Source of the DNA: a virus
Lineage: Duplodnaviria > Heunggongvirae > Uroviricota > Caudoviricetes
Strand: one strand, 5' to 3'
Length of the DNA stretch: 27,225 nucleotides
IMG/VR virus record: IMGVR_UViG_2541047770_000002
The notes under the pieces are model-generated. The model saw nothing but the letters and a program-made list of their open reading frames with translations, was not told the origin of the DNA and did not search any database. Of the stretch, positions 13,792 through 27,225 are shown piece by piece (the first letter of the stretch is position 1; each line of letters begins with the position of its first letter). Both the position numbers and the translations under genes were made by a program.

Positions 13792-14117
13792 TATTGACCT
13801 CCGGTATTGCGGTACTGCTGTACCACTTCCAGTTTGTTATAAAGCGCGTCCAGTTTGGCCTCAATGACTGTCTGGCCACGGATATAATCCTCTCGACGGA
13901 CATAATTCAGCGGTAAATCCGCTTTAAATCGCATAAATTCTTTTTCCAGCTCGCCCCAGTTGGAGGCGGATTGTTGCAGGGCCTGTTCAAGGGAGGCGAA
14001 TCGTGCCGCCTGGCGTTCTTCTGTTTTACTGAACAACCATTTGGCGAGCCCTCCCACAAACCCCATGAAGGTGAGCAGAAAACTCACCACCGTCCAGAAT
14101 TCAACCTGCAGTGTCAT
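13791..14117 (-). CDS. Membrane-anchored coiled-coil protein (Mu gp25-position)
   Basis: 108 aa; N-terminal hydrophobic helix (FWTVVSFLLTFMGFVGGLA) then coiled-coil; ATGA overlap with spanin gene. Confidence 0.45.
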   Translation of the reverse strand: MTLQVEFWTVVSFLLTFMGFVGGLAKWLFSKTEERQAARFASLEQALQQSASNWGELEKEFMRFKADLPLNYVRREDYIRGQTVIEAKLDALYNKLEVVQQYRNTGGQ

Positions 14118-14764
14118 TTCTGTAATCCTTCCCGTTCATCCAGTAACGCGTTTATCTGGTTCCGCCAGCGACGACATTGTCCTGCGTTGTCGATGATGTT
14201 GGCGAGAACGTCACGCTGGGAGACACCCGAATCGCGTAACCGGGTGTCAGTGGTTTCAGGTTGCCCGGTCGCTGTGCCAGAGCGGGTGCCAGCGGCGGCA
14301 ACTGAGTCTGAATGACCGGTGTCGACGGATGCGTTGTCATATCCGAGTGCGGCGTTGTACTGGCGCACGAAACCGCGAGTAAACACGCACTCAATGGGAT
14401 GGCTCTTACCTTTTTCATCAATCCAGCGCTGTGTGACATCGTTAATTTGCCCCTGTAGTTGTTTATTCCGGCTCTCCAGTTGAGCAATCTGCTCAAGATA
14501 ACCGGCTTCAGCCCGCTGCCCGGCGGCCACCTGCTCCTGATACCGTCTGGCCCAGGCCCGCAGCGCAGCATTCTCAAGCGTTGCCTGCTCCGTTTTGTAC
14601 GCGTCAAATGCTGACTGCAACTGACTGAGCGCGGTATCACCGTCACGCTTTGCAGAGTCATGACCACTTCTGTATCCCATGGCATACAGGCCGACCAGAA
14701 AGGCATTGATAAGAATGGCCAGCAGAATGCCGCGCCACGGCAGCTTTTTAACCAGATGCCACAC
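14114..14764 (-). CDS. Rz-like inner-membrane spanin (i-spanin)
   Basis: GTG start at 14764 preceded by GGGGAGG (8-nt spacer); short N-terminus, one TM helix (GILLAILINAFLVGLYAMGY), long periplasmic coiled-coil; directly after endolysin. Track start at 14866 would overlap endolysin by about 120 nt. Confidence 0.6.
   Translation of the reverse strand: MWHLVKKLPWRGILLAILINAFLVGLYAMGYRSGHDSAKRDGDTALSQLQSAFDAYKTEQATLENAALRAWARRYQEQVAAGQRAEAGYLEQIAQLESRNKQLQGQINDVTQRWIDEKGKSHPIECVFTRGFVRQYNAALGYDNASVDTGHSDSVAAAGTRSGTATGQPETTDTRLRDSGVSQRDVLANIIDNAGQCRRWRNQINALLDEREGLQK
14152..14418 (-). CDS. Rz1-like outer-membrane lipoprotein spanin (o-spanin), embedded in Rz gene in +1 frame
   Basis: ATG at 14418 gives MKKVRAIPLSACLLAVSCAS...: lipoprotein-type signal with Cys, proline-rich 88-aa product; wholly inside the i-spanin gene. 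Confidence 0.55.
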   Translation of the reverse strand: MKKVRAIPLSACLLAVSCASTTPHSDMTTHPSTPVIQTQLPPLAPALAQRPGNLKPLTPGYAIRVSPSVTFSPTSSTTQDNVVAGGTR

Positions 14765-15488
14765 AACTGCTGCCTCCCCATGTGAGATATCGCGGTGCCA
14801 GTTCGCGCAGGATGCGCTGCGGATAATGGCGGTTCTCCCGCCAGCTGGCCGCATTGCGTCCGGCATTCACCGTGGCGACATGTCCGAACCAGCGGGTGCT
14901 GTCCAGACCTTTCTGTGATGCAAGCCGCCTGTCCCGTTGTACCCAGCCCAGACCACCGTTATAGCCCGACAGTGTCATGGCCATACGCTCGCAGTCACTG
15001 GCGGCGCTGACACGCTGCCACAGCCAGCGGTCATAGCTGACCAGCGCCCGGATAGCCCATGCCGGATTAAACGGCTCACGACTGCTCAGCATCGGTATCA
15101 ACTGGCTTATCCAGTCGGCAGTGGCAGGCATGAACTGCGCCAGTCCCTGAGCGCCAGCCGGCGAGATCGCATCAGGTCGCCAGCCGCTTTCCTGATGCAG
15201 TTGCGCGGCGAAATCGGCCACCGGCGCAGACAGTCCCCATTCAAGCCGGGCATTACGGATCACATCATCGCGATACTGCAGCGCAGCCTGCGGAGGTTGT
15301 GCTGCGCATGCCTGGCTGAAAAAGCCGCCACACCAGAGCAACATTGCGACAAAGAATACCCATGCCATATGAACCAGAAAGGTCCCGGCGCGGACTGACG
15401 GGCGTTCGGTTCTGATGAAGACCCGAAAGGCTTCGAAAGCCAGTTTCAGGGACATGCATACAATCCAGGTGATCTGCGGCCAGTTCAT
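14748..15488 (-). CDS. Endolysin, soluble lytic transglycosylase (SLT) domain, with N-terminal hydrophobic SAR-like or signal segment
   Basis: Contains the SLT catalytic-region signature ...AQLHQESGWRPDAISPAGAQGLAQFMPATA...; hydrophobic stretch WVFFVAMLLWCGGFFSQACAA near N-terminus; start coupled to holin-like stop (TAATCATG). Alternative start at ATG 15368. Confidence 0.8.
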   Translation of the reverse strand: MNWPQITWIVCMSLKLAFEAFRVFIRTERPSVRAGTFLVHMAWVFFVAMLLWCGGFFSQACAAQPPQAALQYRDDVIRNARLEWGLSAPVADFAAQLHQESGWRPDAISPAGAQGLAQFMPATADWISQLIPMLSSREPFNPAWAIRALVSYDRWLWQRVSAASDCERMAMTLSGYNGGLGWVQRDRRLASQKGLDSTRWFGHVATVNAGRNAASWRENRHYPQRILRELAPRYLTWGGSSCVASG

Positions 15489-15490
15489 GA

Positions 15491-15841
15491 TTAAAGCCCC
15501 ATCGCAACAGCCAGGCAGACCGCTGCAACAATCAGTGCACGGCGAATTAACGCAGCAGAAAACACCAGGTGAAGGCCGGTCTGTACCGGGAAACGCCCTT
15601 CAGCCATCAGCCTGTCGTCATGTTTCAGGTACTGACCAGGACGGGCTTTGGGGAAGAGCGAACGGTCAAGCCAGTAACCCAGCACTGCTGCCAGCGTGAT
15701 GAGTGCCAGCTTGTAGATCACAACAGGCAGCTGCTGTGGTGAGACCAGAGCGATGGTGCCCAGCAACAGCACTGAGGTCAGCAGCCAGCCGCTGAGGCGA
15801 GGTTTTTTAACAGGGGGAATGAATTTTTTCAGGTTTTTCAT
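15491..15841 (-). CDS. Holin-like membrane protein
   Basis: ATG at 15841 with AAGGAGA 5 nt upstream; about 116 aa with three predicted TM helices; first gene of the lysis/late operon immediately upstream of endolysin. Confidence 0.5.
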   Translation of the reverse strand: MKNLKKFIPPVKKPRLSGWLLTSVLLLGTIALVSPQQLPVVIYKLALITLAAVLGYWLDRSLFPKARPGQYLKHDDRLMAEGRFPVQTGLHLVFSAALIRRALIVAAVCLAVAMGL

Positions 15842-15971
15842 GTGTGTCTCCTTATCTGGTGGAGACAGCATCACAAATACAGGGCGCGAAGGATTTTAAA
15901 GCGCGTTAAGAGAGCCGGGGATACGGGATGTGCAGGATAAACGATGAATTATTCACAGAGGAGAATACGAT
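15842..15971. promoter_or_regulatory. Divergent intergenic region: probable late-operon promoter (minus) and promoter/operator of gene 15972..16700 (plus)
   Basis: 130-bp non-coding gap between divergent start codons; contains small palindrome TGAATTATTCA at 15945..15955 resembling the half-sites of the repressor-ner operator. Confidence 0.3.
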
Positions 15972-16700
15972 ATGACGCAGACACTGAATCCGGTCATCAC
16001 TGTCACCGTGTCCGGTCCTGTGGGCAGCGGTAAAAGTTACATATTGGCGCGGATAGAGGAAGTGGTGAAACAGGAATTCGGAAACAGCGTCATTGTCGAC
16101 GCCGCAGACGTGGACGGTGAGCGCCGTATGAGTGGGGATGATCTGAGCACATGGCAGAAACCACGGGCTGGCACAGTGATCAGGCTGGAGGAATACACGG
16201 GACAGGGCCTGTTGTCATACGGCGAGGAGCGTATCTGTCGGACGAATGAGCTGCTGGATGTTATATGCCCCACGGGCCGGCAACCCTGGATACTGCCCGA
16301 TGCACTGCATGCCACCATTGCGGCACTGATGACAGTTTACGATCAGGAGCTGCTCATGAAGGAGTTACGTAAACTCACTGGTCAGTCAACAGAATGTTGT
16401 TCGTCCCCGAAGTACGGCAAACAGGAACACATCCCGATTAACCAGCCTCCCCGGTTCTTCGACGAATACCTTCTGACACCGGAAAATAAAGCTGAGCATG
16501 AAGAGATCAAAGCGGCGTTGTTCCGGGAAATCAGGAAGATTGCTGAAATGCAGTTGGGGGGCGGGCTGGACAGAGTGATGGCGAGAGGAGAATGGGCATC
16601 GCTGTTTGAAAGAGTTTCCCCGGAATTACTTCCCCTCGCACTGGCTATCGGGATTATGCAGACAGCGGATAAACCTCACTTACGTTCATTAAACACGTAA
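15972..16700 (+). CDS. Hypothetical protein with Walker-A-like motif (GPVGSGKS)
   Basis: 242 aa; strong RBS AGAGGAG 8 nt before ATG; N-terminal VTVSGPVGSGKSYIL motif; no further assignable domain by eye. Confidence 0.5.
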   Translation: MTQTLNPVITVTVSGPVGSGKSYILARIEEVVKQEFGNSVIVDAADVDGERRMSGDDLSTWQKPRAGTVIRLEEYTGQGLLSYGEERICRTNELLDVICPTGRQPWILPDALHATIAALMTVYDQELLMKELRKLTGQSTECCSSPKYGKQEHIPINQPPRFFDEYLLTPENKAEHEEIKAALFREIRKIAEMQLGGGLDRVMARGEWASLFERVSPELLPLALAIGIMQTADKPHLRSLNT

Positions 16701-17080
16701 CGCATAATCCGGGATACGCATTCAGCGATGACTGCATTTTCACCGGTTTTTACTGCATCCAGAAGTGACTCTTTAAATGGTACGGGCCGGGGCTGCAGAA
16801 AGGTCGGCATGGCATTGAGCAGACAGAGCGTTTTTTCCGTGAGGACGACATCAGCCGCTCCCACAGCCAGCAACTGAGAGTAACGAATATAGCTGTTATC
16901 CCGAAGCCATATCAGCGTATCAATAAAACACCGGCACTTTTTCTGGTCGTGATCAACCTGGTCCGGGATATCGAAAAAACCAGAATAAATCAAAACCTGA
17001 GGTGCCGGATGCGTGTTCAGTAATCGGCAGAATATTTTGCCGGTGAGTACATAAAAATCATCATTTAAGGAGTGCATCAT
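16676..17080 (-). CDS. Hypothetical protein (134 aa)
   Basis: ORF on late-operon strand, convergent 25-nt overlap with 15972..16700 and start codon overlapping the divergent start of 17079..17294; weak RBS (GGGGA). Coding status uncertain. Confidence 0.35.
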   Translation of the reverse strand: MMHSLNDDFYVLTGKIFCRLLNTHPAPQVLIYSGFFDIPDQVDHDQKKCRCFIDTLIWLRDNSYIRYSQLLAVGAADVVLTEKTLCLLNAMPTFLQPRPVPFKESLLDAVKTGENAVIAECVSRIMRYVFNERK

Positions 17081-17294
17081 GAATCCCCGATTAACGTTAA
17101 CAGAACATCAGCGCCGTGCTGAAGCAGTGAACAATGTTCTGGAAGATATTATCCGGTTATACCGCGGAGAACTGAGTGTCTGTCGTGCCGCTTTTCATTT
17201 TCAGGGAATACAAAAGCAGTTTGATACTTCTGTTTTTGCAGAAGGTATTACTTATGCCCTGGACCGGATAAGGTCAGAAAATCGCCCCGGATAA
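17079..17294 (+). CDS. Hypothetical small protein (71 aa)
   Basis: Near-ideal RBS AAGGAG with 6-nt spacer before ATG 17079; upstream of dam on same strand. Confidence 0.4.
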   Translation: MNPRLTLTEHQRRAEAVNNVLEDIIRLYRGELSVCRAAFHFQGIQKQFDTSVFAEGITYALDRIRSENRPG

Positions 17295-17348
17295 TCCCTA
17301 AACCACATTAACAGAAATCCCGCCATCCCTGCCGCATCATGAAAGAAC

Positions 17349-17380
17349 GACCAGCCCGGCACCCGAAAGCCGGGCTGGTC
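17349..17380. other. Perfect GC-rich hairpin (12-bp stem GACCAGCCCGGC, 8-nt loop)
   Basis: GACCAGCCCGGC-ACCCGAAA-GCCGGGCUGGUC 55 nt after stop of 17079..17294; no strong U-tract on plus strand, so either a weak terminator or a structured RNA/REP-like element. Confidence 0.4.
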
Positions 17381-17420
17381 ATCGCCCCACAGGAATGCGC
17401 TGTGAGCCGACCAAGGTTCA

Positions 17421-17466
17421 GTCAGTCTCGCGAGACCTGACCAGACTGCCATATTTTTTAATAATT
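17421..17466 (+). promoter_or_regulatory. Candidate dam promoter with overlapping palindromic operator
   Basis: Imperfect 21-bp palindrome GTCAG-TCTCGCGAGA-CCTGAC (17421..17441; central 10 bp perfectly palindromic) overlapping a -35-like TGACCA, 17-bp spacer, -10-like ATAATT, about 20 nt before the dam ATG. Confidence 0.3.
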
Positions 17467-17484
17467 GTAAAAGGCTTACAGATT

Positions 17485-18252
17485 ATGAAAATGCAGACAT
17501 TACCCATCGTGCCGTGGATTGGTGGCAAACGCCGCCTTGCAAAACACATTCTGCCGCTGTTTCCGGCGCATGAATGTTATGTGGAGCCGTTTTGTGGGGC
17601 AGCAGCGCTCTATTTTCTTAAGACACCCGGCAAGATCGAAGTCATCAATGATATCAACGGTGAACTGGTGAATCTGTACCGGGTGGTAAAGCATCACCTG
17701 GAAGAATTTGTCCGCCAGTTCAAATGGGCGCTGGTCAGCCGTCAGATCTACAAATGGCTGCAGATCACCCCGGAAGAAACACTGACGGATATCCAGCGTG
17801 CGGCACGGTTTTACTACCTTCAGAAGCAGGCGTTTGGCGGCAAGGTGGCAGAGCACAGCTTCGGTACCTCCACCACATCCCCGCCACGCTTCAACCTGCT
17901 GCGTATTGAAGAAGAACTGTCAGCGGCACACCTGCGGCTTTCCAGAACAGTCATAGAACACATGGACTGGCAACAGTGCATTGAGCGTTATGATCGTCCG
18001 CACACGCTGTTCTACTGCGACCCACCGTACCTGGGTACGGAAGGCTATGGTGTGGATTTTCCTGAAGGGAACTACTCGCGGCTGGCAGAGCTGGCCCGGT
18101 GCATCAGAGGAAAGATGATTATATCGGTCAACGATATCCCGGAAATGCGGCAGGTTTTTAACGGTCTGAACATTCACTGTGTGAAGGTCAACTACAGTCT
18201 TGCAGGAAAGGGAACACTACGGCGCGAACTTATTGTAAGTAATTTAGAGTAG
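17485..18252 (+). CDS. dam: DNA adenine (N6) methyltransferase, Dam family
   Basis: Translation aligns by eye with E. coli Dam motifs: PWIGGKRRL (vs KWAGGK), EPFCGAAALYF (vs EPFVGAGSVF), DINGELVNLY (vs DINSDLISLY), FYCDPPY catalytic motif. Start ATG 17485 (MKMQTLPIV...); track start 17395 is upstream in frame. Confidence 0.85.
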   Translation: MKMQTLPIVPWIGGKRRLAKHILPLFPAHECYVEPFCGAAALYFLKTPGKIEVINDINGELVNLYRVVKHHLEEFVRQFKWALVSRQIYKWLQITPEETLTDIQRAARFYYLQKQAFGGKVAEHSFGTSTTSPPRFNLLRIEEELSAAHLRLSRTVIEHMDWQQCIERYDRPHTLFYCDPPYLGTEGYGVDFPEGNYSRLAELARCIRGKMIISVNDIPEMRQVFNGLNIHCVKVNYSLAGKGTLRRELIVSNLE

Positions 18253-18277
18253 GCTCAGAAGGAGGTAAGTAGTCTTG

Positions 18278-18309
18278 CATAACAATGCACCTGATGGTGC
18301 ATTGTTATG
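18278..18309. terminator. Bidirectional terminator-type hairpin between convergent dam and membrane-protein gene
   Basis: 14-bp perfect inverted repeat CATAACAATGCACC / GGTGCATTGTTATG with 4-nt loop TGAT; 26 nt after dam stop and overlapping the stop of the minus-strand gene. Confidence 0.5.
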
Positions 18310-18742
18310 ATATCACTTTGATTATATTGAATAATCGCCTACCTGTTTGTAATAAACACAACATAGACATAACAACAAGCCCAATGAGAATAGCGGCTAC
18401 AATCTCTTGATGCTTACTTTGCAGCATCAACCCAATCAAACATGTCAACACCAACACTAGCAAAACTAAGCAAGTGTAGAATGCATCGGTCATCAGACGC
18501 TTGTAATGTCCGGTTTTTTGCATGTTTTTAAGTAACGGTTTATCAAGCAATGATGCAAGTAGTGCAATTGCTGTAATAATAAAACCTAACAACGTTGCAA
18601 AGACACTGGACAATGTAGTCATGAAGTTTGGGATTGCGGCTACTGGCATATGGGGCAACTTGAACCAGTAGAGAAAACCAATCCCACATCCAATCAATAA
18701 ACTAAGCAATAGGGCCGAGTTCATCTTCTCCAATATATGCAT
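18305..18742 (-). CDS. Small four-helix integral membrane protein, RexB-like in size, topology and position (homology unverified)
   Basis: ATG 18742 with GGGAGAG 5 nt upstream (alternatives 18766, 18724); about 145 aa with four hydrophobic helices; last gene of repressor-strand operon; AT-rich. From memory of lambda RexB (144 aa, 4 TM) there may be a shared TLSS-plus-hydrophobic motif, but this was not verified. Confidence 0.6.
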   Translation of the reverse strand: MHILEKMNSALLLSLLIGCGIGFLYWFKLPHMPVAAIPNFMTTLSSVFATLLGFIITAIALLASLLDKPLLKNMQKTGHYKRLMTDAFYTCLVLLVLVLTCLIGLMLQSKHQEIVAAILIGLVVMSMLCLLQTGRRLFNIIKVIS

Positions 18743-19595
18743 TGATACTCTCCCGGTTTTCAGCATACGCAGTATCGATTAGACGGTACATGGTTTCGGC
18801 TGGAGGGAAACGAGCGTCAGTAACTACCGATTGATAGGACGAAATACGCTCGGCAATCAAATCCACAGGATGGACAACACCATCAGCATCGAACACATCA
18901 ATTACAGCCTTTTTCGCCCCAAACTCGACTAACTCTTGCATAGCAAATTTTATATTCTGCTTAAGCCTACCATCACTATCGCCACGGCGAGTATTAATCC
19001 CCATTACAATTTGCATTGTATCGGCACCTGCATCACCAAGCAGTTGTAGTGTCTTTTGACTGAAATCAGTATCAGGGTAAAACTCAGGATTACGGGGGCG
19101 AGGAATCGTCAACTGGATTTTTTTCATTTTGACATCTCCTCTCATAAGCCTAGCGATTGCATCTTTTTCCAGCAAAGGTGCGGGCTTAACCTTTGAACCA
19201 AAGATAGTTGAAAGAAATGCACTAAAACGGCTTATACCACAAGCCATATGATTATAGTGCCAACCTATAACATTGATTCGAGGATAGAATACAAAGAAAT
19301 TGCGCTCAATGATCCCTTCATCCTTGGCAAGTGGAATAGGGGTAGACTGTTTCCCTGGTGCACCTTTATCCGGAATGTTCGAGTTGCGAAATTTTCTCAA
19401 CTCTCCACTAAAAGAACCATCCGCGCGTTTTTTCAACCCCCAAATTTCTCTAGTAAAACCCTCATGGTTTGAAGAGGAAGGGCTCTGTTTATCAATTACA
19501 GATTGAAAAGCATCTCCGAGATTTGCCAGCTGATCTGTGGCCTTAAACGATAGCTGATGAAACTCAATACGATAATTTCTCACATCACCACTCAT
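18702..19595 (-). CDS. Hypothetical 297-aa soluble protein in the rexA position (no recognisable family)
   Basis: ATG 19595 with AAGGA 8 nt upstream; no TM segments; AT-rich codon usage unlike phage backbone; 3' end overlaps start of the membrane-protein gene (operon). No similarity to lambda RexA apparent by eye. Confidence 0.6.
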   Translation of the reverse strand: MSGDVRNYRIEFHQLSFKATDQLANLGDAFQSVIDKQSPSSSNHEGFTREIWGLKKRADGSFSGELRKFRNSNIPDKGAPGKQSTPIPLAKDEGIIERNFFVFYPRINVIGWHYNHMACGISRFSAFLSTIFGSKVKPAPLLEKDAIARLMRGDVKMKKIQLTIPRPRNPEFYPDTDFSQKTLQLLGDAGADTMQIVMGINTRRGDSDGRLKQNIKFAMQELVEFGAKKAVIDVFDADGVVHPVDLIAERISSYQSVVTDARFPPAETMYRLIDTAYAENRESINAYIGEDELGPIA

Positions 19596-19717
19596 ACGAT
19601 TAATCCTTAACGCGGAAAGTTCAGATGGTTAGTGCAAACAGCACATCCTACTGTTTAAATCAGCGCATATAACGAAGAGGTTTGATAACCTTGTCAATTG
19701 TTCTCATTGGGAATAGA
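19596..19717 (-). promoter_or_regulatory. Intergenic region between repressor and 297-aa gene; candidate internal promoter
   Basis: Minus-strand consensus -35 TTGACA (plus 19692..19697) with imperfect -10 candidates 17-19 nt downstream; could allow expression independent of the repressor promoter. Confidence 0.25.
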
Positions 19718-20134
19718 TTAACCCACATTTTTTAACCGCTCAATCGTTGCGGATAATTCCTTCAGTTGTTTTTCCATCTCGATCACTCGCTGTTTTTCCG
19801 CAGCGCCTCGCAGAAGATCGTTACGAACCTCGGGGTCTAGCTGCTTTAAAAGCTCAAGCATAGTAAGGTCAGCTTGGCTAAACTGCACTTGCGTCGGAGT
19901 TACGTCTACTTCTTTTGATAAACCTTGTTTTCTACCTGTTAGCAACCAATCTAAAGAAACCCCCTTTTCTTCTGCGATGTTTATGCAAATTGCATAAGGC
20001 ACAGAATCACGCTTCCTCCAACTTGCAAGTGTCTGCCTATTGACGTTAAGCGCTCTTGCCAACTCACTATCATTCTCTGCTTGGAATAGTGACATTAACC
20101 GGGAAAGCACAGCGTTAACATCTTTGTTATTCAT
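19718..20134 (-). CDS. Prophage repressor, CI-type helix-turn-helix (no peptidase domain)
   Basis: 138 aa from ATG 20134 (track start 20149 is GTG); HTH segment LARALNVNRQTLASWRKRDSVPYAICINIAEEKGVSLDWLLTG typical of phage CI-type repressor N-terminal domains; divergent from the ner-A-B early operon. Confidence 0.7.
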   Translation of the reverse strand: MNNKDVNAVLSRLMSLFQAENDSELARALNVNRQTLASWRKRDSVPYAICINIAEEKGVSLDWLLTGRKQGLSKEVDVTPTQVQFSQADLTMLELLKQLDPEVRNDLLRGAAEKQRVIEMEKQLKELSATIERLKNVG

Positions 20135-20149
20135 TTTGCGTAATTCCAC

Positions 20150-20222
20150 TTGATTTATTTATTTTGAATAAGTACATTTATTCATATTGAGTACATGATA
20201 ACCCAACTGGAACTATCCGCAT
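20150..20222. promoter_or_regulatory. Repressor / early-operon operator-promoter region
   Basis: 20-bp palindrome TGAATAA-GTACAT-TTATTCA at 20165..20184 (perfect 7-bp arms); second GTACAT copy at 20191..20196; lies between divergent repressor and ner-like starts. Confidence 0.5.
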
Positions 20223-20447
20223 ATGAATAAACAACAAGTTCGGGCACGACTAGTTGAACGAGGCAGTAGCTTGCGCCAGTTCGCGCTTAACGCAGGCTAT
20301 GAGCCACGAACAGTCACACAGGCAGTCAGTCGCTGGGCTGGTAAAAGTGAACTACCACGTGGTCGTTTGACTTATCGGATTTTGCGAGATCTATCGGTTG
20401 CAATAGGTAAAGAAGTTACCCCCGGTATCCTTAAGGAGGTGTCATGA
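20223..20447 (+). CDS. ner: Ner-like DNA-binding protein (early-operon regulator)
   Basis: 74 aa; segment LRQFALNAGYEPRTVTQAVSRWAGKSELP resembles Mu Ner (LSALSRQFGYAPTTLANALERHWPKGEQ, from memory); first gene of operon ending in transposase and B. Confidence 0.65.
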   Translation: MNKQQVRARLVERGSSLRQFALNAGYEPRTVTQAVSRWAGKSELPRGRLTYRILRDLSVAIGKEVTPGILKEVS

Positions 20448-20752
20448 ATAAACCAAATACATCAAGCGCAGGTACCCGTATTTTGCGTGTTCTTAAGGCG
20501 TTACGTGGCCACGCTCTGAACGGTATCTCCAACGGTGAACTGGCGGCAGCACTGCACGAGTCACCAGCAAACATTAATCGGGCACTCAACACCCTCATTG
20601 AAGAAGGGCTGGCCCTGAAACTGGAGAATGGACGTTTTGCACCGGGCATCCAGTTACTGCAGATCGCCATGGCTCACAGTAACGAGATGGCACGAGCGCA
20701 GGATCGTATTAACGAAATCAACCAACGTGTCATTTCAGGTAGTCGTTTATAA
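20444..20752 (+). CDS. Small winged-helix DNA-binding protein (IclR-like HTH)
   Basis: 102 aa; ATG overlaps ner stop (ATGA), AAGGAGG upstream; pattern RILRVLKAL...ISNGELAAALHESPANINRALNTLIEEGLA resembles IclR-type N-terminal wHTH. Confidence 0.45.
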   Translation: MNKPNTSSAGTRILRVLKALRGHALNGISNGELAAALHESPANINRALNTLIEEGLALKLENGRFAPGIQLLQIAMAHSNEMARAQDRINEINQRVISGSRL

Positions 20753-20762
20753 GGAGTAATCA

Positions 20763-21674
20763 ATGGGACGTACCAAATCACCAATGTCCACTGATCTGAA
20801 TGCTGAGGTGCCGCTGTCTGATGATCTCAACATCAGTCTTAATACCATGGCACAACACCGCGTGGAGATCATGCAGCAGTTCGGCGATGGTCTGCCTTAT
20901 GAACGTGATCGCATTGTTCACGAAGCACGCTTTTATATGGCACAAAGTGCTGAGGCCATGCTAGAGGCAGGTAAACGACTGATAATACTGAAAGAAAATG
21001 AACCATATGGTGATTTCATAAATATTGTCGAGTCTGAATTATCAATGTCAAAGCGTACTGCACAGGTAATGATGCAGGCATCAATAAAATATTTATCACC
21101 ACAACTTGAGTCAAAAGCGCAGACGTTTGCGCTTTTAGGAAAAGCCAAATTATTCGAGTTAATGACGGAAGACGATGAAAACCTTGCCGAACTGGCTGAT
21201 GGTGGCACTGTTGCCGGCCTGACGCTTGACGACGTTGATCGCATGTCAGTACGCGAACTTCGCCAGGCCCTGCGCGAAGCGCGCGAAACCAACGCAGCAC
21301 AACAGCGCGTACTCGCCGATAAAAATGAAAAAATTGATTCTCTCTCTACCAGACTGGAAAAGAAATCCCGTATTCAGCCGCCTGAGCCTGATGAGGAGGT
21401 TAAGAAGCTGCGGGCGGAAGTGACAGCATTAGCGGTTGAGGCGGAATCTGCTATCGCCGTCCGACTGTCCAGCGCTTTTGAGACACTGTGCGCATATTGT
21501 GCTGAAAACATGATTGATACTCCCAGAGACTTCATGGCAGGCCTGGTCTGTCAACTGGAAAGCACAGCGCGTAGCCTGCGCTCCACATTTGACCTGCCGG
21601 ACGAGCCAACAGGCAATGCAGCGCCTTCATGGCTGACTGAGCCGACGCCACAGATTAACGGGCTGGAGGCATAA
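20763..21674 (+). CDS. Hypothetical coiled-coil early protein
   Basis: 303 aa, AAGGAG RBS; central coiled-coil region; a gene of similar character sits before the transposase in several Mu-like prophages (recollection, unverified). Confidence 0.5.
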   Translation: MGRTKSPMSTDLNAEVPLSDDLNISLNTMAQHRVEIMQQFGDGLPYERDRIVHEARFYMAQSAEAMLEAGKRLIILKENEPYGDFINIVESELSMSKRTAQVMMQASIKYLSPQLESKAQTFALLGKAKLFELMTEDDENLAELADGGTVAGLTLDDVDRMSVRELRQALREARETNAAQQRVLADKNEKIDSLSTRLEKKSRIQPPEPDEEVKKLRAEVTALAVEAESAIAVRLSSAFETLCAYCAENMIDTPRDFMAGLVCQLESTARSLRSTFDLPDEPTGNAAPSWLTEPTPQINGLEA

Positions 21675-21677
21675 CCA

Positions 21678-23447
21678 ATGAATGCTGCCCTGACTGAACG
21701 ACTGGTTTATGTCGCCCGCGCGGCACGTGACGCGGGGCATGGTAAACGCGGTGCAATATACGACGCTGCCTGTGCTGAACTTGGCATGTCCCGCGCCACT
21801 CTGCTGCGCAGGCTGAAGGAGGTCTCTGTGACTGATAAACGCAAAAAACGCGCCGATGCCGGGCGCAGCGCCCTGACCCGCGACGAAGCCGCGCTGATAT
21901 CTGCCACACTGCGTGAGGCCACCCGCAAGAACGGTAAGCGTCTCTATTCCATCGCAGATGCAGTGGAAACCCTGCGGGCTAACGGCTTTATCACCGCAGG
22001 CAGAACAGATGAAACCACCGGTGAGTTTTTCCCGTTGTCTGAAGATGCCATCAGCCGTGCTCTGCGTAACTATGGCCTGCACCCGGAACAACTGGATGCC
22101 CCTGCACCACATACCGAAGTGGCCAGTCTGCATCCCAATCATGTCTGGCAGATTGACGCCTCACTCTGCACGCTTTACTACCTGAGCAATGGACATAAAG
22201 GGCTGCAGGTGATGGACAGCGCGAAGTTCTACAAGAACAAGCCCGCTAACCTTGCCCGTATCGCCAGTGACCGCGTGTGGAGTTACGAGATTACCGACCA
22301 TGCCAGCGGCTGGATTTACGTTGAGTATGTGACGGGCGCGGAATCCGGTGAGAACCTGTGTTCTGTGCTTATCAACGCCATGCAGGAGCGTGGCGGCGCA
22401 GACGTGCTGCACGGCGTGCCGAAAATACTCTATCTCGACCCCGGCTCGGCAAACACCGCGGGTATGACGAAAAACATGTGCCGCTCACTGGGCATCGACC
22501 TGATAGCGCACAAGCCGCATAACGCCCGCGCCACCGGACAGGTGGAAAAGGCGCGGGACATTATCGAACGCAAGCTGGAGCCGGGTCTGAAGTTCCGGCC
22601 GGTTCACAGTCTGGAAGAACTCAACGCGCTGGCCGCGAAATGGCGCAGCCACTTTAACGCCACGGCTGTTCACAGCCGCCACGGTAAAACCCGCACGGAT
22701 ATCTGGCTGAAGATTACTGCTGAGCAGCTGAAAAAAGCGCCTCCCGTTGAGGTATGTCGTGAACTGGCTGTGGCGGCACCAGAACTCCGCAAAGTCACGC
22801 CAAAACTTCGTGTCTCGTTCCGGGGCACTGAATTTGACGTATCAACGGTACCGGGCGTACTGGTTGGTGAAAAACTGATGATTACCCGTAACCCATGGCG
22901 CAGCGATGTGGCACAGGTGGTTCTGACCGGTGAGGACGGCCACGAGACGTTCTTCCTGGTCGAAGAGGTCAGAAAGAACGAGTTTGGCTTTGCTGAAGGC
23001 GCGGCGGTATTTGGCGAAAGTTACAAAGCCCTGCCGGAAACCCCGGCACAGATGGCGGCAAAAGAAACCGAAGCGCTGGTTACCGGTACAGACAACGCCG
23101 CAGATGCAGCCGCCGCACGCAAGGCGAAGGCGCTGCCGTTCGGCGGGCGGCTTGACCCGTATAAACATATCGACGACACCACACTTCCGGCCTATATGCC
23201 GAAGCGTGGTCAGGCCTCTGACGTACGCGGGCCGCGCACTGAACAACGTCCCATGACTCATGTGGAGGCCGCGAAAGCCCTGCGCGATAAGTTCAGCGCC
23301 GACGGCCTTACCTGGACGCCGGAACATTACCGCCAGTTAACGGCACAGTACCCGGACGGCGTACCGGAAGCCGCACTGGATGAAGTCATGGCCACGCTGA
23401 CCACACCGGCCCGCAGCAGTGTTATCAGCATTGTTAACGGCAACTGA
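21678..23447 (+). CDS. DDE transposase (Mu A-like)
   Basis: 589 aa; GGAGG 9 nt before ATG; immediately followed by AAA+ ATPase partner; HVWQIDAS-type segment consistent with DDE integrase/transposase core. Confidence 0.8.
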   Translation: MNAALTERLVYVARAARDAGHGKRGAIYDAACAELGMSRATLLRRLKEVSVTDKRKKRADAGRSALTRDEAALISATLREATRKNGKRLYSIADAVETLRANGFITAGRTDETTGEFFPLSEDAISRALRNYGLHPEQLDAPAPHTEVASLHPNHVWQIDASLCTLYYLSNGHKGLQVMDSAKFYKNKPANLARIASDRVWSYEITDHASGWIYVEYVTGAESGENLCSVLINAMQERGGADVLHGVPKILYLDPGSANTAGMTKNMCRSLGIDLIAHKPHNARATGQVEKARDIIERKLEPGLKFRPVHSLEELNALAAKWRSHFNATAVHSRHGKTRTDIWLKITAEQLKKAPPVEVCRELAVAAPELRKVTPKLRVSFRGTEFDVSTVPGVLVGEKLMITRNPWRSDVAQVVLTGEDGHETFFLVEEVRKNEFGFAEGAAVFGESYKALPETPAQMAAKETEALVTGTDNAADAAAARKAKALPFGGRLDPYKHIDDTTLPAYMPKRGQASDVRGPRTEQRPMTHVEAAKALRDKFSADGLTWTPEHYRQLTAQYPDGVPEAALDEVMATLTTPARSSVISIVNGN

Positions 23448-23457
23448 GGAGGGAAAC

Positions 23458-24624
23458 ATGCTGGTACTGAAGCAGCAACTGAAAGAGGCCCGTATTCCAC
23501 AGGCGGTGGTGGCGAGAGCTGTCGATGTTTCTGAGGCCACGCTGGCCCAGATTGTGAATCATAACGCGTGGCCCCGCACCAGCCCCGGAGAAGTGCGCCG
23601 GCGTCTTGCGTCCTGGCTGGAAAGTCAGGGGATTGATACAACGAAGAGTTTTGATGCTGTACAGGGCGCGGCCACGCCCCGTACAGCGGGTACCACAGAT
23701 AAAACGAGCCTCAGTGAGGAAGAGAATATGTTACTCAAAAAACAGGTGTTATTTCCAGCAACCAAAAAAGCGTTTGGTCTTTTCCGTGACCCGTTCGCCG
23801 ACGAAGCCATGCAGGGTTCTGATGATGTGTTCACCACCCCGGACATTCGCTACGTGCGTGAGGCGCTGTACCAGACAGCCCGTCATGGTGGGTTTATGGC
23901 CGTCATCGGTGAGTCCGGTGCGGGTAAATCCACGCTGCGCCGCGACCTGACTGAACGTATCAACCGCGAGAATGCGCCGGTAATTGTTATCGAGCCATAC
24001 ATCATCGCTATGGAAGACAACGATGTGAAAGGGAAAACCCTGAAGGCAGCAGCTATTGCCGAAGCCATTATCAGTACCATCGCACCACTGGAAAGCATCA
24101 GACGCAGTCAGGACGCCCGTTTTCGCCAGTTGCATCGCGTCCTGAAAGACAGCAGCCAGGCGGGGTTCAGCCACGTTCTGGTGATTGAGGAGGCCCACAG
24201 TCTGCCCATTCCGACACTGAAACACCTCAAACGCTTTTTTGAGCTGGAGTCCGGTTTCAAAAAACTGCTGTCCATCGTGCTGATTGGCCAGCCGGAACTG
24301 GCGACAAAACTGTCTGAACGCAATATGGAAGTCCGTGAAGTCGTTCAGCGCTGTGAGGTGGTCGAACTTCTGCCTCTGGACAATAACCTTGAAGAATTTC
24401 TGACGTTCAAACTGCAACGGGCCGGTAAACAGCTGACGGACATTATGGACGCCGGTGCAGTGGATGCCATACGTGCCCGCCTGAGCAATCCGGGAAGTCA
24501 CCGTAAAAATATGGTCAGCCTGCTGTATCCGCTGGCCGTCAGTAACCTGGTAATAGCCGCCATGAATCTGGCCGCTGAAATCGGGGTTCCACAGGTCAAC
24601 GCTGACGTTGTCAAAGGGGTTTAA
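23458..24624 (+). CDS. Transposition target-DNA activator ATPase (Mu B-like, AAA+)
   Basis: ATG 23458 with GGAGGG RBS directly after transposase stop; N-terminal HTH-like segment then Walker A GESGAGKST and Walker B-like HVLVIEEAH. Confidence 0.8.
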   Translation: MLVLKQQLKEARIPQAVVARAVDVSEATLAQIVNHNAWPRTSPGEVRRRLASWLESQGIDTTKSFDAVQGAATPRTAGTTDKTSLSEEENMLLKKQVLFPATKKAFGLFRDPFADEAMQGSDDVFTTPDIRYVREALYQTARHGGFMAVIGESGAGKSTLRRDLTERINRENAPVIVIEPYIIAMEDNDVKGKTLKAAAIAEAIISTIAPLESIRRSQDARFRQLHRVLKDSSQAGFSHVLVIEEAHSLPIPTLKHLKRFFELESGFKKLLSIVLIGQPELATKLSERNMEVREVVQRCEVVELLPLDNNLEEFLTFKLQRAGKQLTDIMDAGAVDAIRARLSNPGSHRKNMVSLLYPLAVSNLVIAAMNLAAEIGVPQVNADVVKGV

Positions 24625-24643
24625 TAATGAAATCCACCACAGG

Positions 24644-24810
24644 TGCGTATTTTCATGAAAGGAGATCACTCAATAACTTCCATCGAGATCGGGTAATAAC
24701 ATTTGAACAGATCGCTGAATAACATCGATGGAGATCACTTTTGACTCATTTTGTTATTCAGTGATCTCCATCAATGTTATTGGAACTTCACAGGTGTGTT
24801 GATCTGTATC
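24644..24810. repeat. Left terminal inverted repeat region of IS with multiple internal repeats
   Basis: GGAGATC-containing motifs at 24661, 24685, 24730 and inverted at 24763; six GATC sites within about 160 bp. Confidence 0.6.
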
Positions 24811-24836
24811 TTTTGCCATTCCGGTAAAGGATACCT

Positions 24837-26378
24837 ATGCCAACAGTTCCAATTTCTATGAGAAAACTTAAAGAAATTCTTAGGCTTAAATACGGTGTTG
24901 GACTCAGCCATCGACAAATTGGTCGTAGTCTTGCAATCTCCCCTTCCGTTGTATCCAGATATGCTAATCGGGCGGCTCAACTTGGCATAAAGCAGTGGCC
25001 CTTACCTACAGGATGGGATGATACAAAACTAAAACATGCGTTCCTTCAGACCCAGGTTAAGATGAAGAAGCACTCTCTGCCTGACTGGGCTACAGTACAC
25101 CGGGAACTGCGTAATAAATGCGTGACGCTGCAGCTACTCTGGGAAGAATACTGTGAGCGTAATCCAGGCGGTTTTTACAGCTATAACCATTACTGCCGGA
25201 TGTACCGTGAATGGCTCAAAACCACTTCACCATCAATGCGTCAGGTACATAAAGCTGGCGAAAAACTTTTCGTTGATTACTGTGGACCTACCGTTGGCGT
25301 TACCGACCCTGAGACCGGAGAAATAAAAACTGCTCAGGTCATCGTAGCTGTTCTCGGGGCATCAAGTTACACATGGGCAGAGGCCACCTGGTCTCAGCAG
25401 CTTGAAGACTGGGTGATGAGTCATGTTCGCTGCTTCCAGTGGTTGGGTGGCGTTCCTGAACTTGTTGTTCCGGACAATCTGAAAAGCGCCACATCCAGGG
25501 CATGTAAGTATGATCCTGACGTTAACCCTACCTACCAGCAGATGCTTGAGCATTATAATGTCGCAGTTTTGCCTGCGCGGCCACGTAAACCGAAAGATAA
25601 AGCCAAAGCTGAAGTTGGCGTTCAGGTTGTTGAACGCTGGATCATGGCCCGAATCAGGCATGAGATCTTCTACAGCCTTGCATCGCTTAATCAGCGCATT
25701 CGGGAGTTGCTGGAAAGACTGAATAACAAAATAATGCAGAAGTTGGGTTATTCACGTGCAGAACTCTTCATCCAGCTTGATAAACCCGCACTGAAGCCTC
25801 TTCCTGAAGCCAGTTACAGTTACACCCTGGTGAAGAAAGTCAGAGTTCATGCCGATTACCACGTGGAAATCGACAAACATTACTACTCGGTTCCATGTTC
25901 GCTGTTAGGCCAGCAACTGGAAGCATGGATCTCCGGAGAACTGGTAAGACTCTTCAATCAGGGGCAGGAGGTTGCTGTGCACCCGCGCAAGCGTACTTAT
26001 GGCTACAGTACCCGCAACGAGCACATGCCTGAAGCTCATCGACAGCATGCCACCTGGACGCCAGAGCGTCTTCTGGAATGGGCGGGGCACATAGGCAGTG
26101 AAACTCATAGTTATGTGCTTCATATACTGAACTCTCGTCCACATCCGGAACAAAGCTATCGCTTCTGCCTTGGACTCCTGAACCTTCATAAAAAATACAG
26201 TAAAGCCAGACTTAATGCAGCATGTGCAAGAGCTCTGAAAACAAAGGTATGGCGTCTGTCAGGTATTAAATCGATCCTGGAAAAAGGTCTGGATAAACAA
26301 CCTGTTCAGGATCCAAAACCAGATCTGTTATCCACGATGGAACACGAAAACGTACGCGGCAGTGAGTATTACCACTGA
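24837..26378 (+). CDS. istA: IS21-family transposase IstA
   Basis: 513 aa; N-terminal HTH (GLSHRQIGRSLAISPSVVSRY), DDE-type core; followed 11 nt later by istB. Confidence 0.85.
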   Translation: MPTVPISMRKLKEILRLKYGVGLSHRQIGRSLAISPSVVSRYANRAAQLGIKQWPLPTGWDDTKLKHAFLQTQVKMKKHSLPDWATVHRELRNKCVTLQLLWEEYCERNPGGFYSYNHYCRMYREWLKTTSPSMRQVHKAGEKLFVDYCGPTVGVTDPETGEIKTAQVIVAVLGASSYTWAEATWSQQLEDWVMSHVRCFQWLGGVPELVVPDNLKSATSRACKYDPDVNPTYQQMLEHYNVAVLPARPRKPKDKAKAEVGVQVVERWIMARIRHEIFYSLASLNQRIRELLERLNNKIMQKLGYSRAELFIQLDKPALKPLPEASYSYTLVKKVRVHADYHVEIDKHYYSVPCSLLGQQLEAWISGELVRLFNQGQEVAVHPRKRTYGYSTRNEHMPEAHRQHATWTPERLLEWAGHIGSETHSYVLHILNSRPHPEQSYRFCLGLLNLHKKYSKARLNAACARALKTKVWRLSGIKSILEKGLDKQPVQDPKPDLLSTMEHENVRGSEYYH

Positions 26379-26389
26379 TACGGGATCCA

Positions 26390-27139
26390 ATGATGAATCA
26401 TCTTTACGAACAACTGACCGCACTTAAACTCACCGGCTTCCGTGATGCGCTTAAAAAGCAACTTGCTCAGCCGGGCACATACCAGGAGCTGGGCTTCGAA
26501 GAACGCCTGTCATTACTGACAGCAGAAGAACTAACCTGCCGTGAAAACAGGAAGGCAGAGCGTCTGATCAAACATGCACGGTTCAGACTTAATGCTGAGT
26601 TATCAAAGCTGGATTATCGTAACAATAGAGGGCTGGACAGGGCCCTCATCCGTTCACTCAGTCAGGGAAACTGGTTAACCCTGAAACAAAATATTTTACT
26701 GACCGGGGCCACCGGCAGCGGTAAAACGTTCCTGGCATGTGCACTTGGTCATAATGCCTGCCGACAGGGATACAAGGTCTACTATTATCGCCTTAAAGCG
26801 CTGATGGAACAGTGCTATCAGGGGCATGCTGATGGAAGATACAGCAAACTTTTGACCAGGCTGAATAATAGCGATCTGCTGCTTCTGGATGACTGGGGGC
26901 TGGAACCTCTCTCATCAGAACAGCGTAGCGACCTGCTGGAAATAGTGGATCTGATGTACCAACGAGGCTCAATCATCGTAGTGAGCCAGTTGCCGGTGGA
27001 AAACTGGTACAAAATGATCGGAGACTCCACACATGCGGATGCCATCCTAGATCGACTGGTTCATGGCAGTATCAAGATCGAACTTAAAGGAGAATCAATG
27101 CGGAAAATACAATCTCCGTTGACCGAAGGAGATCAGTGA
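26390..27139 (+). CDS. istB: IS21-family helper ATPase IstB
   Basis: 249 aa; Walker A LLTGATGSGKTFLACALG, Walker B LLLLDDWG; canonical IstB size. Confidence 0.85.
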   Translation: MMNHLYEQLTALKLTGFRDALKKQLAQPGTYQELGFEERLSLLTAEELTCRENRKAERLIKHARFRLNAELSKLDYRNNRGLDRALIRSLSQGNWLTLKQNILLTGATGSGKTFLACALGHNACRQGYKVYYYRLKALMEQCYQGHADGRYSKLLTRLNNSDLLLLDDWGLEPLSSEQRSDLLEIVDLMYQRGSIIVVSQLPVENWYKMIGDSTHADAILDRLVHGSIKIELKGESMRKIQSPLTEGDQ

Positions 27140-27164
27140 AGGTAATTTAAAAACGGTTCTGTGA

Positions 27165-27224
27165 AAGTGACACGAACCGATCTCCATCGATGTTACTCAC
27201 CGATCTCCTTCACGGTAATACGCA
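27165..27224. repeat. Right terminal inverted repeat region of IS
   Basis: Reverse complement TTGCGTATTACCGTGAAGGAGATCGGTGAGTAACATCGATGGAGATCGG aligns with left end (24643..24700). Confidence 0.6.
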
Positions 27225-27225
27225 A

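Follow-up and report, generated by a model that had tools for sequence, protein, structure and literature searches.

A stretch of 27,225 nucleotides of viral DNA, referred to here as the window, very probably ends in an intact copy of the insertion sequence ISEc12 that entered a BcepMu-like transposable prophage of E. coli by transposition; the GATC-rich ends of the element are its predicted transposase-binding sites. The complete copy of ISEc12, an IS21-family element carrying istA and istB, is 2,581 bp in length and occupies positions 24644-27224 on the plus strand, within codon 6 of a phage gene of 89 amino acids and co-directional with the phage early operon (Table 1). The insertion is known from one contig, and the left junction alone lies within the window. 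The element is an already catalogued, common insertion sequence of E. coli and its insertion is ordinary. The significance is mainly one of annotation: the contig end is to be taken as a probable assembly break, and the early operon of the prophage as split.

Table 1. Features of the B/ISEc12 region (positions are those of the window)
Feature	Position	Strand	Evidence or remark
Phage B-like AAA+ transposition ATPase, the final early gene left intact ahead of the IS	23458-24624	+	Pfam AAA_22 (E 4e-20); phrog_296 'DNA transposition protein' (E 8e-93)
Disrupted early gene of 89 aa, first 17 nt (5 codons + 2 nt)	24627-24643	+	phrog_2041 (E 3e-36)
ACAGG, left copy of the expected 5-bp target-site duplication	24639-24643	+
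Left repeat array, four direct 23-bp units, predicted IstA-binding sites	24644-24738	+	L1 24644-24669; L2 24670-24692; L3 24693-24715; L4 24716-24738
L5, inverted copy of the repeat unit	24761-24783	-	inverted repeat with L4
Predicted 12-bp hairpin over the istA Shine-Dalgarno sequence AAGGA (24828-24832)	24806-24834	+	RNA fold
istA, DDE transposase, 513 aa	24837-26378	+	Pfam rve (E 3e-10) and Mu-transpos_C_2 (E 3e-16)
istB, AAA+ helper ATPase, 249 aa	26390-27139	+	PF01695 IstB_IS21 (E 2e-67)
Right-end unit over the istB stop codon, inverse to R1/R2, with GATC 27131	27115-27138	+
Right inverted repeat, R2 and R1, 23 bp apart	27177-27224	-	R2 27177-27199; R1 27200-27224
Single base A past the IS; the window (presumably the contig) ends here	27225	+

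Identity of the element and of its host prophage

Over its entire 2,581 bp, the element is 99.7-99.9% identical to features that carry the name 'IS21-like element ISEc12 family' in RefSeq (the name ISEc12 is used here as the ISfinder name appearing in RefSeq/PGAP annotation), and the RefSeq relatives of istA are annotated as 'ISEc12 family transposase'. This full-length near-identity to a named element, together with the Pfam domains of istA and istB, establishes the IS21-family unit that an earlier note on this DNA had proposed. The organization is that of the IS21 family: IstA combines a DDE domain of the rve fold with a C-terminal beta-barrel domain, the AAA+ protein IstB is encoded directly downstream, the terminal inverted repeats are imperfect and of the 5'-TG ... 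CA-3' type, and the ends are built of several direct repeats at 23-bp spacing. Both open reading frames are intact. The istB start in RefSeq is the second ATG, at 26393, and the gap between the istA stop and the istB start, on the same strand, is 12-15 bp. Compared with the consensus of six other copies, the copy in the window differs by 1 nt (A instead of G at 25327, giving K instead of R at residue 164 of IstA), and its terminal repeats are identical to those of other copies. Annotated ISEc12 matches were found in 1,923 of the 5,426 complete E. coli genomes (about a third) and on 977 plasmids.

The element begins with TGCGTATT... at 24644 (TG) and finishes with ...AATACGCA at 27224 (CA). The same boundaries, the same length of 2,581 bp and the same TG...CA ends were observed, despite differing flanks, for all 16 other copies examined (16/16). 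The target duplications of these 16 copies were of 5 bp in 10 cases and of 6 bp in 2, while the flanks were unmatched in 4, at least three of which look like products of recombination between copies. Target duplications in the IS21 family are of 4-8 bp. A 5-bp target duplication has been reported for ISEc12 (PMC10711316), and the duplication in the window is presumably also of the usual 5 bp, ACAGG.

Upstream of the element, the two tandem pairs of transposase and AAA+ ATPase, phage A and B followed by istA and istB, are present as first described. The phage A transposase matches phrog_310 and is related to IstA remotely only (19% identity over 169 aa, E 0.016); comparison of phage B with IstB gave nothing meaningful. 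The B reading frame, for which a mechanical call gives GTG 23419 as the start against ATG 23458 in RefSeq relatives, encodes a product identical to WP_000960679.1, the 'ExeA family protein' of IS-free relatives. In BcepMu-like phages, the genes of a DDE transposase and an AAA+ ATPase precede gam, gemA and mor within a single early operon. Over A/B the closest phage is Escherichia phage PhiKM (genus Bcepmuvirus), with 100% identity, and BcepMu is at 68%. From 10600 to 24644 the window is 100.000% identical to a prophage of E. coli EC5654. BcepMu-like elements integrate at random and have TG...CA ends. The prophage resides at different chromosomal sites in two genomes, beside nagE in one and within gspL in the other, and comparison of the two integration sites mapped its right end to ...TAATCA together with the downstream genes. 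It also encodes its own dam, as the earlier note had stated: a D12-class adenine methylase lies at 17395-18252.

The insertion site and the interrupted early gene

The stop codon of B (TAA) is at 24622-24624 and the element starts at 24644, in agreement with the 19 bp first counted between them. These 19 bp are, however, the start of a phage gene and not a spacer. In IS-free relatives the phrog_2041 gene, annotated as 270 nt and with no function assigned, starts 3 bp past the B stop. One such relative (L002, 14028-14297) reads ATGAAATCCACCACAGG followed directly by TATCAACC... across the empty site, and the IS-free EC5654 prophage runs ...CCACCACAGG followed directly by TATCAACC... across the insertion point. 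Alignment with IS-free relatives, which had been suggested as a check, gave 100% identity up to the junction and phage sequence beyond it, confirming that the early region of the phage is interrupted by the element beyond A/B. In the window, the start of the disrupted gene runs into the element as a chimeric open reading frame of 31 amino acids (24627-24722).

It had also been supposed that the element separates the early operon from the prophage terminus. The element does separate B from the downstream part, but it does not lie between the operon and the terminus: its position is within the following early gene, at codon 6, and some 12 further genes and 3,765 bp of prophage are expected beyond. 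The insertion would thus split the early operon into one part with the repressor, the ner-like gene, A and B, and another with the 89-aa gene, gam, small open reading frames, gemA and mor; the right end of the prophage, at a distance of 3.77 kb in IS-free relatives, would also be cut off from A/B. In the case of a simple insertion, the right junction is expected to continue as ACAGG+TATCAACCAGC..., that is, ...GGTAATACGCA-ACAGG-TATCAACCAGCAAATC..., and the expected right-junction read is ...CGGTAATACGCA-ACAGG-TATCAACCAGCAAATC....

The stop of the window 1 bp past the element most likely represents an assembly break at a multi-copy repeat and not the prophage boundary. Since one base only is visible past the element, a rearrangement was considered, in which the downstream prophage would have been lost or inverted, either by recombination of one ISEc12 copy with another or by transposition within the molecule, leaving unrelated DNA to the right of the element and a prophage truncated after B. 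Such events do affect ISEc12: a pair of flank-swapped copies in other E. coli genomes (L063 and L064) indicates IS-mediated inversion, and one copy (L003) is without a clean 5-bp duplication. Nevertheless, the visible base, A, agrees with the expected ACAGG (the chance of such a fit being one in four), and a contig break at the outer edge of a multi-copy element is what short-read assembly yields for a simple insertion. The other end of the window likewise breaks in a repeat-prone gene, its left edge falling inside the tape-measure gene. We consider the rearrangement quite unlikely.

Of the complete E. coli genomes, 632 contain the A/B stretch; in every one of the best matches listed, the alignment breaks off at query base 2045, corresponding to 24644 of the window. 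The B/ISEc12 junction was detected in none of the listed best of these 632 near-full matches in 5,426 complete E. coli genomes, and the exact left and right junction patterns had no match in viral contigs or metagenome contigs. No record was found of the 31-aa chimeric frame, and none of the ten other sites with the exact IstA K164 variant adjoins phage B. The lack of the junction in these collections would be in agreement with an assembly artefact, by which prophage and element, apart in the genome, were linked over a short sequence common to both; indeed the T at 24644 is shared by the end of the element and the uninterrupted phage sequence. An overlap of one base, however, cannot drive a mis-join. 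Moreover, the join coincides exactly with the canonical TG end of ISEc12 and not with an internal position, and a second ISEc12 copy (L005) likewise has the flanking pentamer ACAGG as its duplication. An artefact is thus extremely unlikely, and transposition of ISEc12 into the prophage is the reading adopted below.

Terminal repeats and the question of Dam methylation

The richness of the ends in GATC and the repeated GGAGATC, both pointed out in the earlier note, were confirmed by counting. At the left end, six GATC sites (24664, 24687, 24710, 24733, 24763 and 24801) are present in 193 non-coding bp, against an expectation of 0.65 by base composition and 1.9 by a first-order Markov model (P about 0.01). 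The right end carries three (27131, 27179 and 27202), where 0.4-0.85 are expected (P about 0.05). Six of the nine GGAGATC heptamers of the window are at the ends of the element; shuffles of the window contained a mean of 2.8 and never nine.

The first four left-end GATC sites follow each other at exactly 23-bp spacing, one in each unit of the form (A)ATAACAT-N5-6-GAGATCRS. L4 and L5 together make a 22-bp near-perfect inverted repeat (95% complementary), and L5 forms hairpin 1 in the RNA fold. The unit layout and the left GATC offsets (20, 43, 66, 89/90) are kept in relatives at 54-93% IstA identity; an equivalent of L5 is located at an offset of about 120 in all relatives of the subgroup, and an equivalent of GATC 27131 at about 90 in relatives. 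To set the ends of the relatives, multiple copies from a single genome were compared, and TGCRTATT served as an anchor. Because the alignment was made on GATC, information content across the units is circular at the GATC columns, and positional conservation was used instead.

For IS5376, the repeats are spaced by 23 bp, and each carries two conserved boxes, whose recognition by HTH-1 and HTH-2 takes place in the major groove (PMC10122671). Each unit of ISEc12 contains two boxes, AATAACAT and GAGATCRS, at a distance of roughly one helical turn; by analogy, these would be recognized by the pair of HTH domains at the N terminus of IstA. The four direct repeats and one inverted repeat on the left, and the two direct repeats and one inverted repeat on the right, are predicted IstA-binding sites. 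The number of GATC sites at the ends simply follows the number of repeats, since GATC is the core of one box. Judging from the sequences, ISEc12, the ISAs28-like element, ISSso4, ISBmu3 and ISRme9 are a subfamily of IS21 with a GATC-containing predicted recognition box every 23 bp.

From the GATC motifs, the earlier note had supposed a Dam-sensitive transposition. This supposition was not supported: GATC is the core of the 23-bp predicted IstA-binding repeats, and TGATCAC is found also in ISBmu3 and ISRme9 but not in ISAs29. Under Dam gating, methylation of the nine terminal GATC sites would alter IstA binding, or hemimethylated sites would recruit SeqA, and the activity of ISEc12 would largely be restricted to the time just after replication or to dam-deficient cells, as is that of IS10, IS50 and IS903. 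Several observations point in this direction. GATC is present in every predicted IstA-binding unit, and thus at the element ends, as in Dam-regulated insertion sequences; its offsets are kept in relatives from Enterobacterales, Aeromonas, Pseudoalteromonas, Psychrobium, Psychromonadaceae and Rheinheimera while the rest of the unit diverges; and an extra GATC (24801) occurs in TTGATC just upstream of istA. The boxes of IS5376 are, in addition, read via the major groove (PMC10122671), where N6-methyl groups project. Against these observations, TGATCAC at 23-bp spacing is present, in even more copies, in ISBmu3, from a Burkholderia cenocepacia plasmid, and in ISRme9, from Cupriavidus, which is not known to have Dam. 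The methylome of B. cenocepacia consists of CACAG and GTWWAC only, without GATC methylation (PMC7364216). Conversely, ISAs29, which takes its name from the Dam-positive Aeromonas, carries TGAACAC in the copy examined, located on an IncC plasmid of E. coli, and the Pseudomonas and Nitrosomonas relatives have TGGCCAC and TGCCACC. No predicted sigma-70-like promoter overlaps a GATC; the TTGATC at 24801 is without a good -10 partner, and this site is lost in the Erwinia relative. Full-text literature searches for a link between IS21-family elements and Dam yielded no paper. Dam gating as such appears rather unlikely.

A correlation with the host had at one stage been considered, as all close relatives (54-93% IstA identity) keep the GATC sites and those of Nitrosomonas and Francisellaceae are without them, but this idea was overturned by the sampling of plasmids (ISBmu3, ISRme9 and ISAs29): GATC does not track Dam-positive hosts, ISBmu3 and ISRme9 having the box and ISAs29 lacking it. 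Because the motif is present in relatives from Dam-less hosts and absent from ISAs29, it is one lineage's version of the recognition box and not an adaptation to Dam. The comparative sequence data speak against a selection of GATC for Dam control, and they are compatible with a methylation effect as a by-product. Modulation of IstA binding by Dam is physically possible, rather than specifically supported, and the dam gene of the phage adds nothing obvious in a host already having Dam. It is unlikely that in Dam-positive hosts the nine GATC-bearing boxes make end recognition of ISEc12 methylation-dependent, coupling transposition to the replication fork, and that prophage induction transcribes istAB and, through phage replication and the phage's own Dam, changes the methylation of the ends; if true, ISEc12 would be the first member of the IS21 family with demonstrated Dam control. 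The preferred reading of the GATC boxes remains that of predicted transposase-binding sites, and this subfamily offers a convenient system for asking whether Dam methylation affects IstA binding.

Expression, consequences for the prophage and comparison with known systems

The promoter scan gave no convincing istA promoter and no sigma-70-like one upstream. Six terminator-like sites were predicted in the element, all on the minus strand. As no plus-strand terminator is predicted, transcription from the phage early promoter may read into istAB. The predicted RNA fold of 24700-24845 has an energy of -52.5 kcal/mol (z -6.96), and the modelled hairpin over the ribosome-binding site probably damps the translation of istA. 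For the prophage, the insertion would inactivate the 89-aa gene and would be at least partly polar on gam through mor, crippling lytic development. Because its early operon is split by the element, the prophage is probably defective for lytic growth. A comparable situation is that of the X mutants of Mu, in which IS1 is inserted in or near B in the early region, and in which killing and lytic growth are blunted. Here, in contrast, the inserted element is ISEc12 and it is located just after B, at the positional equivalent of the kil region of Mu.

The host element resembles BcepMu-like phages (Bcepmuvirus, PhiKM) in carrying A, B, gam, gemA and mor in one early operon, and the copy of ISEc12 in the window differs from the named element in its insertion site alone. 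With IS10, IS50 (Tn5) and IS903, ISEc12 shares GATC inside the end sequences that the transposase must bind, as predicted for ISEc12. The Dam sites of IS10, IS50 and IS903 overlap with one particular end and with the promoter of the transposase gene, and an effect of dam has reportedly been measured for Dam-regulated insertion sequences, for example by Yin et al. 1988. In ISEc12, on the other hand, no promoter overlap is evident, and the GATC box is common to relatives in Dam-less hosts.

The likeness to IS21 and IS5376 includes the istA-istB operon, the direct repeats with two boxes at 23-bp spacing and a target duplication that is usually of 5 bp. In IS21 and IS5376, a junction promoter arises where two copies stand in tandem, (IS)2, with a short spacer between them (PMC10122671). 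In (ISEc12)2, a natural tandem whose copies are likewise separated by a short spacer, of 2 bp, the outward-facing TTCACG carried by R1 (27209-27214) is 16 bp from TATTTT of the next copy (24648-24653). ISEc12 differs from IS21 and IS5376 in the length of IstA (513 aa against about 400 aa), in the number of repeats (4+1 on the left and 2+1 on the right against L1/L2 and R1/R2) and in the sequence of the box, which in ISEc12 contains GATC.

Identity and integrity of the IS21-family element

The element next to the prophage B gene extends from position 24644 of the window, opening TGCGTATTTTCATG, to 27224, closing CGGTAATACGCA. Its assignment to the IS21 family in the earlier note was confirmed both by the Pfam domains of its transposase (istA) and AAA+ helper ATPase (istB) genes and by its identity to ISEc12. 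Copies of 99.7-99.9% identity, all annotated as ISEc12, were detected by megablast in 1,923 of 5,426 complete E. coli genomes, at a median of three places per genome, and in 977 plasmids. The window copy is 2,581 bp long with imperfect inverted ends, and all of sixteen other copies, compared for length, termini and flanks, showed the same length and termini. The target duplication was 5 bp in ten of these copies, in agreement with PMC10711316, and 6 bp in two. The flanks did not match in four, of which at least three look, from their sequences, like products of recombination between copies. Compared with a six-copy consensus, the window copy differs by one base at 25327, giving K164 instead of R in IstA. 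Since this is a single-base difference, both genes and every terminal repeat are intact, and the exact IstA variant is widespread among other sites, the element is a standard and presumably active ISEc12. ISEc12 is already known, and the insertion site is ordinary though previously unrecorded.

The phage A/B pair (transposase and AAA+ ATPase) and the istA/istB pair are, as described before, aligned in tandem. The two transposases, A and IstA, are only 19% identical across 169 aa (E 0.016), and for the ATPases B and IstB no significant similarity was detected. Judged from these comparisons, the tandem arrangement is a coincidence of insertion.

Features of ISEc12 and head-to-tail copies in complete genomes
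Feature	Position	Description
istA ORF	24837-26378	513 aa; Pfam rve and Mu-transpos_C_2
istB ORF	26390-27139	249 aa; Pfam IstB_IS21, E 2e-67
Left direct units L1-L4	GATC at 24664, 24687, 24710, 24733	four units, exact 23-bp period
Left inverted unit	24761-24783	30 bp further on than L4
Right units R2, R1	GATC at 27179, 27202	two units, exactly 23 bp apart
Right inverse unit		one unit, overlapping the istB stop
(ISEc12)2, E. coli 4/1-1	NZ_CP023844.1 2230230-2230371	locus L079, 3001-3142
(ISEc12)2	NZ_OZ501570.1 4692740-4692881	

Insertion point within the prophage

The flanking DNA is a BcepMu-like transposable prophage. Over A/B it matches Escherichia phage PhiKM (genus Bcepmuvirus) at 100% identity, compared with about 68% for BcepMu. 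A query of 22600-24700 was covered to at least 80% in 632 complete E. coli genomes, many belonging to ST131, and among the matches listed for these genomes none carried the B/ISEc12 junction. Between 10600 and 24644 the window and the E. coli EC5654 prophage show 100.000% identity, and in this and other top-ranked matches the match ended at query base 2045, corresponding to 24644. The uninterrupted sequence of the IS-free prophage reads GTTTAATAATGAAATCCACCACAGG/TATCAACCAGC, with the slash at the insertion point.

ISEc12 starts exactly 19 bp after the stop codon TAA (24622-24624) of the B-like gene, as stated earlier. The IS-free prophage carries next to B a gene of 270 nt (WP_000843446.1, 89 aa, phrog_2041) with its ATG 3 bp past the B stop, so that the 19-bp "spacer" consists of 2 nt and the first 17 nt of this gene, and ISEc12 is inserted in codon six. 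Further downstream in IS-free relatives, gam, six or seven small ORFs, a gemA (gp16) homologue and mor follow. Comparison of two integration sites, one adjacent to nagE and the other within gspL, puts the prophage right end (...TCAAGTCTAATCA) 163 bp past mor, at a distance of 3,765 bp from the insertion point. ISEc12, which is co-oriented with the early operon, therefore splits this operon. Thus the early phage region is interrupted, as had been suspected, but the element is not located at a boundary between the operon and the prophage terminus.

The EC5654 prophage lacks the IS and is otherwise identical; its gam gene (locus L002, 14325-14855) has an internal stop and is annotated as a pseudogene, indicating that point mutation also decays prophages of this family. 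The immunity/regulatory region (18210-21550), which comprises the repressor, ner-like, IclR-like and DUF3102 genes, is mosaic: it matches the EC5654 prophage at 100% identity, whereas against PhiKM 20486-21550 is only 79.6% identical and 18210-20485 has no match, the flanking regions being more than 99% identical.

At its start (1-123) the window cuts into the tape-measure gene, at a place that falls in a sequencing gap of the PhiKM record; its end (27225) is one base past a multi-copy IS. The window thus resembles a contig delimited by repeats on either side, and neither of its ends is a prophage boundary. An IS-mediated rearrangement is a possible origin of this configuration, given that flank-swapped ISEc12 copies are present in other genomes, but the sole base after ISEc12, A, fits the start of ACAGG, the expected duplication (C would be expected for a 6-bp duplication), although such a match occurs by chance in one case out of four. 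The right junction was absent from the public viral and metagenome contigs searched, and the 31-aa chimeric ORF was also not on record. A simple insertion is most likely. Exchanged flanks between two ISEc12 copies of one chromosome were observed at loci L063 and L064 (GCA_046581165.1, CP165389.1), and also at L071; in the L063/L064 case ACTCA flanks one copy on the left and the other on the right, indicating inversion by recombination between the copies.

Terminal repeats and Dam methylation

The earlier note had counted the GATC sites correctly. The 193-bp non-coding stretch of the left end contains six GATC, against 0.65 expected from base composition and 1.9 from a first-order Markov model (P ~0.01), the last 105 bp of the right end contain three, and six of the nine GGAGATC heptamers of the whole window are located inside the ISEc12 ends. 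The repeat units (see table) follow the pattern (A)ATAACAT, 5-6 bp, GAGATC(A/G)(C/G). This architecture is the same as that described for the IS21 family, in which the inverted repeats consist of direct repeats "separated by 23 bp", each repeat having a pair of conserved boxes, offset by about one helical turn, that are contacted in the major groove by HTH-2/HTH-1 of IstA, and integration needs two repeats per end (PMC10122671). Because of this match in spacing, the GATC excess at the ends is seen to follow from repeating a predicted IstA-binding site with GATC in its core. GATC is also in surplus within istB (7 versus 2.8 expected from base composition) and in the whole of ISEc12 (23 versus about 11 from the Markov model), and thus the excess is not limited to the terminal repeats.

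For the proposal that GATC-rich ends imply Dam-sensitive transposition, IstA relatives were sampled from one genome per species and from plasmids, and the element ends were then located. Within the ISEc12 subgroup, which comprises members from Enterobacter (93% IstA identity) and from Psychromonadaceae, Psychrobium, Pseudoalteromonas, Aeromonas and Rheinheimera (54-59%), the GATC offsets are constant (left 20, 43, 66, 89/90 and ~120; right 19, 42 and ~90), while the second box varies by lineage (AATAACAT versus TTCTCAT). The hosts of this subgroup belong to orders known to have Dam, and the Nitrosomonas and Francisellaceae relatives are without GATC. The host correlation looked supportive in the subgroup alone, but was removed by the wider sample including ISBmu3, ISRme9 and ISAs29. 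ISBmu3, from a Burkholderia cenocepacia plasmid, carries TGATCAC repeated at 21-23-bp spacing with eight GATC at its left end, and the same box is present in ISRme9 of Cupriavidus, which is not known to have Dam. The B. cenocepacia methylome includes CACAG and GTWWAC only (PMC7364216). The corresponding box is CGATCAC in ISSso4 (Escherichia), TGAACAC in ISAs29 (named after Aeromonas; the copy examined is from an E. coli plasmid), TGGCCAC in an ISPpu7-like element (Pseudomonas) and TGCCACC in an unnamed element of Nitrosomonas. The left ends of ISBmu3 (L074) and ISRme9 (L077) are built in a more complex way than the ISEc12 left end: the 23-bp direct repeats are followed by another series of units that contain TGATCA and are spaced at 21 bp, which brings the left-end GATC count to eight in each.

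Since ISBmu3 and ISRme9 have TGATCAC and ISAs29 has TGAACAC, GATC is the form that a homologous TG..CAC box takes in one lineage; this form occurs without Dam (ISBmu3) and is missing with Dam (ISAs29). As the boxes are contacted in the major groove, an effect of methylation on IstA binding is plausible on physical grounds. Dam-sensitive transposition is nevertheless without specific support, GATC being the core of the 23-bp repeats and the box not tracking Dam across relatives, and full-text literature searches found no paper describing Dam control of an IS21-family element. The phage-encoded Dam (17395-18252), to which significance had been attached, adds nothing evident, as the host already has Dam.

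Predicted effects on expression and comparison with known systems

The insertion would inactivate the phrog_2041 gene and would be polar, at least in part, on gam through mor. In Mu-like phages, middle and late gene expression depends on Mor-type activators, and therefore reduced mor expression would impair lytic development. As no terminator-like site was predicted on the + strand of ISEc12, transcription from the phage early promoter could enter istAB and even pass beyond. The istA 5' leader (24700-24845) gave a very stable predicted fold (-52.5 kcal/mol, z -6.96), with one predicted hairpin of L4 paired with the inverted unit and another, at 24806-24834, pairing the istA Shine-Dalgarno sequence; the latter would limit istA translation.

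Head-to-tail (ISEc12)2 with a 2-bp spacer (AC) was detected in two complete genomes, with TTCACG of the right end and TATTTT of the following left end separated by 16 bp. This junction is predicted to form a hybrid promoter of sigma-70 type, comparable to that of the activated (IS21)2 in R68.45. The classical X mutants of Mu carry IS1, and the prophage split by ISEc12 would be a natural counterpart of these mutants.
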